Origin: Escherichia coli
GTDB lineage: Bacteria > Pseudomonadota > Gammaproteobacteria > Enterobacterales > Enterobacteriaceae
Length of the DNA stretch: 64,000 nt
NCBI RefSeq assembly: GCF_002854065.1
Contig: NZ_CP024147.1
Reading direction: 5' to 3' (one strand)
Each line of letters begins with the position of its first letter. The stretch's first letter is position 1. Position numbers and translations under genes: made by a program. Shown one piece after another: positions 45,651 through 48,546 of this stretch. Below the pieces are notes generated by a model. It ran no database searches. It was given only the letters and a program-made list of their open reading frames with translations, and was not told the origin of the DNA.

Positions 45651-46130
45651 TTACCACTGGTTTAATTTACTAAATTTTCTTGCATGTAAAATTTCACGCA
45701 ACGTCTCCCCATCAGGAAACACCAACTCCGGCGCGATTTCAAACAGCGGCCACAGCATAAATCCACGATTTTTCATATCGTAGTGCGGAACGGTCAGTCG
45801 TTCAGTATTTATCACTTCATTACCAAACAGCATGATGTCGAGATCCAGCGTGCGCGGTCCCCAGCGTTCAGCTTTACGGACGCGACCTTGCTGCAATTCA
45901 ATACGCTGTGTGTGATTGAGTAGCTCTTCAGGTGCAAGAGAGGTTTCCAGCGCCACGGCTGCGTTTAAGTAATCGGGTTGATCTTGCGGCCCCAGCGGTG
46001 GAGTGCGGTAAAACGAAGAAACGGCAAGAATGTGGCTTTCAGGGATATCGCCTAATGCTTTCAGGGCAGCATTGACCTGCTCCAGCGGAGAGGCCAGATT
46101 GCTGCCTATGGCAATATACGCCACTGTCAT
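45651..46130 (-). CDS. folK: 6-hydroxymethyl-7,8-dihydropterin pyrophosphokinase
   Basis: 159-aa ORF; stop overlaps pcnB region. Confidence 0.93.
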
Positions 46131-47524
46131 GCGGTACCCTCACGACGTGGTGCGCGTTTGCGTGGACGACGAGTACGACGACGCGGTGACGGTTCTTCAT
46201 CCAGCTCGTTGAGCATCCCTTTTTGGTCTGGTGGCGCGGAAACCTGGAACTCACCCCACCATTTCACCAGACGCTGCAGTTCAGCGTTACGTTCAACTTC
46301 AGCTCGCAAGGCCAACAGGTCATAAGCCGCACGGAACTTAGGATGCTCCAGCAGTTTCCATGCGCGTTTACCCTGACGTCGGGACATACGCAACTGCAAC
46401 TGCCAGATATCGCGGGTTAACGTCGTCAGACGTTTCGGGATTGCCAGTGAACGGCAGGCTTCGTCCAGCACGTCGTTCATCGCCAGCGCGAAAGCGTCGT
46501 GATAGGTCAGGCCGCTTTCCTGGGCGATCTTCTGTGCCGTCTCCAGCAGTGGGTACCAGAACATGGCGGCAAACAGGAACGCCGGGTTCACGCGCATATC
46601 GTTATGGATACGCGTATCGGTATTCTTCAGCACCTGTTCAATGATCCGCTCCATCGGGCTGTCGCCATTTTCCGTGAAGTAGCGGGTAATGGTCGGGAAC
46701 AGCGGCTGGAACAGATGATATTCACACAACAGCTTATAGGTTTCGTAACCGTAGCCCGCTTGTAGCAGTTTAAGCGATTCTTCAAACAGGCGTGCCGGTG
46801 GGATATCGTTCAGCAGGGTAGCGAGGCGAGGGATCGGTTCTGCGGTTTCCGGGCTGATGCGCATACCCAATTTGGCGGCAAAACGTACCGCGCGCAGCAT
46901 ACGTACCGGATCTTCACGGTAGCGCGTTTCCGGGTTACCAATCAGACGGATAACGCCGTCCTTCAGATCCTTCATACCGCCAACGTAATCACGGACGGTA
47001 AAATCCGCTACGCTGTAATACAGGCTGTTGATAGTGAAATCGCGGCGCTGGGCGTCTTCTTCGATGGAGCCGAAAATGTTGTCGCGCAGCAACATGCCGT
47101 TTTGCCCGCGTTGGGAGGTCGTGCGGTCGCTGACGTTACCTTCGTGGTGTCCACGGAAGGTTGCAACTTCGATAATCTCCGGGCCAAACATCACATGAGC
47201 CAGACGGAAACGGCGACCTACCAGGCGGCAGTTACGGAACAGTTTGCGCACCTGCTCAGGCGTGGCGTTAGTGGTTACGTCAAAATCTTTCGGCTTTTTG
47301 CCGAGTAACAGGTCGCGCACGCCGCCGCCAACCAGCCAGGCTTCGTATCCCGCTTTATTGAGCCTGTACATTACCTTCAGGGCATTTTCACTGATATCTT
47401 TGCGGGAAATAGCATGCTGCTCACGCGGGATCACCGTCACCTGTGGACGGGCGACTGCCTGTTCAGCCTCGCTTTCCTCGCGGCTTAGCACCTTGCGGCA
47501 AAAATTAGCGACTCGGGTAAAAAT
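46127..47524 (-). CDS. pcnB: poly(A) polymerase I
   Basis: CCA-adding/poly(A) polymerase family ([10 protein letters not shown]); the conserved N-terminus [12 protein letters not shown]... has no in-frame ATG; start placed at the ATT codon 47524-47522. Confidence 0.88.
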
Positions 47525-47583
47525 AGTACACCTCGGTAGTGTCAAACATCATTCAGGACAAAAAAATAGCGGCTAATCATAGC

Positions 47584-48480
47584 TCAGCATGACGCATTTG
47601 AGAATGTTGAATTTACAATTGCCGACTCAGGCACTGCGGTAAGCCGCCAGTTTTTGACGGCTGACTGAAGGATTTGTTCGACGCTGAAATCCTGCCAGTG
47701 TGCTTCTACCTGCTGACCCAGAAATTGAAGTGCCGCGATTAGTACCGGACGTGGATCGCCTTTCGGCAACGCAGGCGCATGATTCTGCTTGGAAAGTTTA
47801 GCGCCTTGTGGATTAAGCGCCAGCGGCAGATGAATGTAATCTGGCACTTTCCAGCCAAAAAGCTGGTACAGCGAGATTTGCCGCACTGTCGGTTCGATCA
47901 AATCTGCCCCGCGGACAATTTCGCTCACGCCCTGGAAGTGATCATCCACCACCACCGCCAGGTTATAGGCAAACAAACCATCACGGCGATGAATAATAAA
48001 ATCTTCCCGTGCCAGTTTTTCGTCGGCGTGAATAATGCCTCGCAGCAGGTCAGTAAACTGGGTGACCGGATGCTGCTGGCGGATACGCACTGCGGCGTTG
48101 CCTGGTCCATGATGCAATTCCCGGCAATGACCGTCGTAAATACCGCCAATGCTTTGAATACGTGCACGCGTGCAGGTGCAGTAATAACTTAGTCCTTGCT
48201 CATGTAACCAGGCGAGTGCTTCGCGATAGGCGTGGTGACGTTGCGATTGCCAGAGAACATCGCCGTCCCAGTGCAGGCCGTAATGTTCCAGCTGGCGCAG
48301 GATAGTTTCTGCGGCACCGGGAACTTCACGAGGCGGGTCGATATCTTCTATGCGTACCAGCCAGCGACCTTGCCGGGCGCGAGCCTGCAAATAGCTGCCA
48401 AGCGCAGCAATCAGAGAACCAAAATGAAGCTCGCCGGAAGGAGAGGGGGCGAAGCGGCCAATATAGTGTGTGTCTGTCAT
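47584..48480 (-). CDS. gluQ: glutamyl-Q tRNA(Asp) synthetase
   Basis: Start taken at ATG 48480 ([23 protein letters not shown]..., 298 aa); class I aaRS HIGH-like motif. Confidence 0.88.
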
Positions 48481-48546
48481 CTCTTTGAACAAAAAATAAG
48501 GCGGGAGCATTTCCCGCCTGTGGTAAACGTGATGGAACGGCTGTAA

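Follow-up and report, generated by a model that had tools for sequence, protein, structure and literature searches.

Comparative evidence for the known AUU start of pcnB, the gene for poly(A) polymerase I, in Escherichia coli

The window considered here is a 64,000-nt stretch of Escherichia coli contig NZ_CP024147.1. On its minus strand it carries pcnB, the gene for poly(A) polymerase I (PAP I), in a dksA-gluQ-pcnB-folK context that is retained with the order and strand seen in K-12 (Table 1). The 1.7-kb pcnB region is matched in 5424 of 5426 complete E. coli genomes, and NZ_CP182139.1, in which the features are gluQRS, pcnB, and folK, is 100% identical to it. The RefSeq pcnB coding sequence of that genome (WP_010723084.1; positions 1677-3074 of the locus) transfers to window positions 47524..46127, i.e. 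with ATT as its first codon. ATT is likewise the first codon of pcnB in K-12 MG1655 (b0143, NP_414685.4, complement(157729..159126)). The window gene and its K-12 counterpart encode the same protein, share the arrangement GAGGTG-TACT-ATT, and have the same 104 nt 5' of the ATT; they differ by 8 nucleotides in the coding sequence (all synonymous, with 0 amino-acid differences) and by two substitutions farther upstream, at -105 and -111.

The product is a member of the PcnB family, being orthologous to K-12 PcnB and having PolyA_pol head, RNA-binding, and Arg-rich C-terminal domains; the precomputed Pfam matches (PF01743, PF12627, and PF12626) are those of P0002, a cluster representative one residue away from the window PcnB. 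At the 3' end of the gene, translational coupling to folK is suggested by the overlap of the pcnB stop and the folK start as ATGA, and the same -1 offset recurs in 38 of 41 loci with a located folK. On the other side of pcnB, the start of gluQ (47584-48510, -) differs between records: K-12 b0144 has 308 aa, with its ATG at window position 48510, and the PGAP coding sequence in the 100%-identical genome has 298 aa, starting at window position 48480 (MTDTHYIG...).

Table 1. Features of the pcnB locus, in window coordinates
Feature	Position	Strand	Remarks
pcnB CDS, poly(A) polymerase I, 465 aa	46127..47524	-	ATT start to TGA stop; boundaries as in RefSeq WP_010723084.1 and K-12 b0143
ATGA overlap of pcnB stop (TGA) and folK start (ATG)	46127..46130	-	
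pcnB codons 2-12	47489..47521	-	translated, with unusually strong synonymous-site constraint
AUU (ATT) initiation codon of pcnB	47522..47524	-	ATT in all 80 species loci; K-12 and RefSeq annotate it as the first codon
GAGGTG Shine-Dalgarno sequence of pcnB	47529..47534	-	4-nt spacer TACT to ATT
In-frame TTG upstream of pcnB ATT	47543..47545	-	start of mechanical ORF; not the start codon
In-frame TGA closing the pcnB frame upstream	47549..47551	-	
Sigma-70 promoter-like TTCTCA-17-TATGAT	47576..47604	-	consensus scan only; overlaps gluQ 3' end
TAAACT, -10 element of published sigma-S promoter pS2	47795..47800	-	just upstream of pS2 start sites

Read on the minus strand, the pcnB frame runs TGA (47551-47549) TGT TTG ACA CTA CCG AGG TGT ACT ATT (47524-47522) and continues after the ATT with TTT ACC CGA GTC GCT AAT TTT TGC CGC AAG GTG. 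A preliminary description of this DNA had stated that the conserved N-terminus of PcnB is preceded in frame only by a TTG seven codons upstream, and that an AUU is present at its head. The frame bears out both statements: after the in-frame stop, this TTG is the sole ATG, GTG, or TTG before the conserved N-terminus begins, and the AUU is the isoleucine codon that opens it. Past the ATT, the frame first offers a canonical codon at codon 12 (GTG, 47491-47489) and then at codon 52 (ATG, 47371-47369). The gene span of 46127-47545 given in that description is accurate for the mechanical open reading frame, which begins at the upstream TTG and has 472 aa, but not for the gene, whose 5' boundary is 47524. 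Comparison with the annotated K-12 start, carried out as the description had proposed, returns the same ATT as the first codon of b0143.

Initiation of pcnB at AUU is already known (published in 2002) and is correctly annotated in K-12 and in RefSeq. Papers that cite the work of Binns and Masters (2002, Mol Microbiol 44:1287) credit it with AUU initiation and its limiting of PAP I (PMC2939334, PMC3561954, PMC5499595, PMC4447247, bioRxiv 10.1101/063800), and several sources concur on initiation at AUU (PMC5499595, PMC4447247, PMC2830850, PMC9410913). Non-canonical initiation in E. coli has been described as confirmed for infC and pcnB alone, and AUU has been measured at 1-2% of AUG (bioRxiv 10.1101/063800). 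PAP I is present at 30-50 molecules per cell, and its overexpression is toxic (PMC3561954). A literature search for retapamulin start-site profiling of E. coli pcnB gave only a paper on S. aureus. We draw a distinction between the anatomy of the locus, its identity with K-12, and the invariance of the ATT and its Shine-Dalgarno (SD) sequence, which come from the present analysis, and AUU initiation itself and its limiting effect, which come from the literature.

Our comparative set was built with one genome per species, and the 80 closest loci were kept, all of them from Enterobacteriaceae and with protein identities of 86-100%; codon-level counts within pcnB (entropy, GTG at codon 12, and ATG at codon 52) were drawn from 78 species. 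The codon aligned to the pcnB ATT is ATT in all 80 of these loci. In all 80, too, GAGGTG occupies positions -10 to -5 at a fixed spacing, with ten variants of the 4-nt spacer, and the sequence 5' of GAGG is divergent (57 distinct sequences over -45 to -1). In 43 of the 80, the frame has no ATG, GTG, or TTG from the nearest upstream stop to the ATT, and in five loci the nearest in-frame stop is merely 5-7 codons 5' of the ATT. The hypothetical codons -9 to -4 are hypervariable, with stops among them, and residues 2-12 of PcnB are 100% conserved as amino acids, all of the nucleotide variation being synonymous third-base change, a pattern typical of a coding boundary, here at the ATT. In short, the AUU opens a conserved protein, has no conserved canonical start upstream and an SD sequence at functional spacing, and is followed by DNA that evolves as coding sequence, whereas the DNA before it does not. 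Of 100 shuffled versions of the window, 31 contain the motif GAGGTG-N4-ATT one or more times, which makes it not improbable alone, so the case rests on identity and conservation; the absence of an ATG over 8 codons is likewise not significant alone.

The strength of the SD sequence was assessed as the energy of the duplex with the 3' end of 16S rRNA. Before the ATT, the duplex reaches -7.2 kcal/mol with a 4-nt spacer, which is beyond the 5th percentile of random 20-nt windows (-6.4 kcal/mol; mean -2.2 kcal/mol). The value before the upstream TTG is +0.4 kcal/mol, the best before GTG codon 12 is +0.5 kcal/mol (at zero spacing), and a weak SD-like AAGG gives -3.9 kcal/mol before ATG codon 52, with no spacer. 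Although the ribosome binding site of pcnB has been termed "poor" (PMC3561954), its SD sequence is good: GAGGUG with a 4-nt spacer, of the energy given above, and invariant in the 80 closest species.

The same arrangement recurs in more distant relatives of PcnB, which were taken from 50%-identity cluster representatives and their contigs. Candidatus Erwinia haradaeae (62% identity, 1.08-Mb genome) has TTGAGGTG-TCCT-ATT TTT ACC CGA, and there the annotation begins on the ATT; CP043324.1 (67% identity) has ACGAGGTG-TACC-ATT TTT TCC CAG; and Thorsellia kenyensis (62% identity) has TTGAGGTG-TATT-ATT TTA AAA CGA, located 5' of the GTG at which its annotation begins. In all three, the N-terminal motif is kept with conservative replacements. 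Two further contigs (55% and 48% identity) have GAGGA, a 7-8-nt spacer, and then ATT ATT at the homologous motif, and one 48% relative begins with GTG instead. This pattern of SD sequence and ATT agrees with the phylogenetic statement credited to Binns and Masters.

On this basis, we propose that translation of pcnB almost certainly starts at the AUU, positioned by its SD sequence, that PAP I is thereby held at a very low level, and that the upstream TTG is accidental. What the preliminary description had said from established knowledge thus holds well. Initiation at the rare AUU is supported by the K-12 and RefSeq annotation, by the citing literature, and by the invariance of ATT and SD; the limiting of PAP I synthesis is supported through papers that cite the 2002 work; and the AUU is indeed conserved here, both in a protein identical to that of K-12 b0143 and in 80 of the 80 closest Enterobacteriaceae loci. 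The comparative evidence from 80 species is new here and agrees with the known AUU start.

Of the other starts that might be considered, the one that fares best is codon 52, an internal AUG from which transcripts of the sigma-S promoter pS1 would be translated into a shorter PAP I besides the AUU product; this would add to the AUU start and not replace it, and we regard it as unlikely. Liu and Parkinson reportedly proposed this internal ATG as the start of pcnB in 1989. A short isoform from the same codon was revived as speculation in PMC2939334, on a background of pS1 activity, observed both in vitro and in vivo in special conditions, and of two anti-PAP I bands on western blots, but the authors themselves term it unproven. 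The AAGG element that precedes the AUG could be taken as a weak SD sequence, but it directly abuts the codon, and ATG stands at codon 52 in just 23 of 78 species, the other 55 having Leu there (CTC, CTT, or CTG).

A start at the upstream TTG, giving a 472-aa protein beginning MTLPRCT..., would use the sole canonical in-frame start 5' of the conserved N-terminus, and PcnB versions of this length have been deposited for Salmonella, Cronobacter, and Kosakonia. It also has a trace in print, since the Introduction of PMC3561954 names "UUG"; that paper is inconsistent on the point, its Discussion giving "AUU". Against this, the TTG is without an SD sequence, and a start codon occurs at its position in just 28 of the 80 closest species (TTG in 26 and ATG in 2), 43 of the 80 having no canonical in-frame start at all. 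In the five loci with a close upstream stop, that stop falls at or downstream of the TTG position, and the seven extra "codons" gather non-synonymous changes and stops. The curators of K-12 and RefSeq also picked ATT over TTG. Taken together, we consider initiation at the TTG very improbable. A start at GTG codon 12, from which automatic gene callers derive a 454-aa protein (MLSREES...), as in many ENA/Logan PcnB predictions, is just as improbable: although this GTG is invariant in 78 of 78 species, it lacks a usable SD sequence, the 11 residues before it behave as translated sequence (amino acids 100% conserved, with only synonymous third-base changes), and the N-terminal motif they form persists in Erwinia haradaeae, CP043324.1, and Thorsellia.

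Salmonella merits separate mention. In the loci of Salmonella enterica subsp. diarizonae and subsp. arizonae (L021 and L022), the position of the E. coli TTG, 21 nt 5' of the ATT at 1201, is occupied by ATG (GTATGACACTACCGAGGTGCGCTATT), without an SD sequence in front of it, and an NCBI Salmonella enterica protein (P0013) is annotated with 472 aa from the upstream ATG (MTLPRCAIFTRV...). Some use of this in-frame ATG in Salmonella may occur. More generally, the deposited length of PcnB varies with the gene caller: 465 aa (from ATT), 472 aa (from the upstream TTG or ATG), 454 aa (from GTG codon 12), or 447 aa (from a later Met), examples being proteins P0002, P0013, P0003, and P0105. This mis-annotation is systematic because the start is non-canonical.

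The sequence just 3' of the AUU is translated and is also unusually constrained at synonymous sites. Over 78 species, codons 2-11 have a mean synonymous codon entropy of 0.20, versus 0.945 gene-wide, and rank 1 of 425 10-codon windows; none of 100000 random codon sets was as low. Codons 2, 4 (CGA, a rare codon), 5, 7, 9, and 12 are invariant, and 5 of the 10 codons from 2 to 11 are without any variation, versus 14 of 417 gene-wide. A generic codon bias at the 5' ends of genes was considered as the cause and is ruled out by folK, which in the same loci has no 5' synonymous constraint (rank 48 of 132). A hairpin sequestering the SD sequence, with GAGGUG paired to codons 2-4 and the AUU in the loop, was also set aside as unsupported, being weak (-3.0 to -5.5 kcal/mol) and, in five species, no better than shuffles; the 105-nt leader and start region are less structured than shuffles (z = +1.1). 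A scan of the whole 64-kb window against Rfam gave no match at the pcnB start. The only match in the window to reach the Rfam gathering score is the sRNA family tp2 (RF02030), at 9921-10034 (-), with 103.4 bits over its full length.

We tentatively suggest that codons 2-12 could be a cis-element acting at the nucleotide level, and not merely coding sequence, which would set the efficiency with which the weak AUU is used or bind a regulator; at present, we find this possible but somewhat doubtful. Such a putative element would be conserved, A/U-rich, unstructured, and downstream of the AUU, with the invariant rare CGA at position 4. To our knowledge, there is no prior description of a downstream cis-element of this kind in pcnB. 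The second most constrained patch of the gene is at codons 35-45 (47390-47422, -), with an entropy of about 0.31-0.36, invariant codons 41-43, and the invariant CGCAAAGATAT at 47394-47404. This patch and pS1, the published sigma-S promoter inside the gene, may be at the same place.

Upstream of the gene, a consensus scan placed only one promoter-like site, TTCTCA-17-TATGAT, and placed none at the constrained patches of pcnB. This site is probably the published pB, the major pcnB promoter, which lies upstream of the ATT (PMC2939334). The start sites of the sigma-S promoter pS2 were given as -263 to -265 from the ATT (PMC2939334), which map to window positions 47787-47789; with TAAACT at 47800-47795, the published numbering therefore fits the window sequence. 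The upstream TTG itself makes up the first three bases of TTGACA (47540-47545, -), a hexamer in full agreement with the sigma-70 -35 consensus, for which there is no convincing -10 element at 16-18 nt and at which the scan reported no promoter.

In light of pcnB starting at AUU, how might its translation proceed? GAGGUG, four bases 5' of the AUU, would position the 30S subunit, and the initiator tRNA would read the AUU as Met, yielding the 465-aa protein. As a near-cognate start with about 1-2% of the efficiency of AUG (about 50-100-fold weaker), the AUU would keep PAP I very low, which is important given the toxicity of PAP I in excess; the TTG before it would be an accident of the 5' UTR sequence. 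We infer that discrimination by IF3 against AUU is the molecular cause of the low efficiency of pcnB. The closest parallel is infC, which encodes IF3 and whose non-canonical AUU also limits expression, the two genes being cited together as the only two confirmed cases in E. coli. The difference is that the infC AUU serves as sensor in an autoregulatory loop, with IF3 discriminating against its own start codon, whereas in pcnB the AUU appears simply to cap a toxic enzyme. We know of no feedback loop for pcnB. A further parallel is ebpA of Enterococcus faecalis, where a rare ATT attenuates expression and the start was first mis-annotated at a canonical codon elsewhere (PMC4447247). Unlike pcnB, ebpA encodes an unrelated pilus-tip protein in an unrelated organism, and its annotated ATG lay downstream of the ATT.

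The confirmation of the AUU in this window is no biological advance. AUU initiation in E. coli has pcnB and infC as its two textbook cases, and the weak codon holds each cell to a few dozen PAP I molecules. The AUU start of pcnB has consequences for annotation, since automatic callers still give the gene wrong starts (at 472, 454, or 447 aa). For the biology of the family, the invariance of the ATT and its SD sequence over 80 species, and their persistence in Erwinia haradaeae and Thorsellia, show that the low-expression setting of PAP I is under strong selection.
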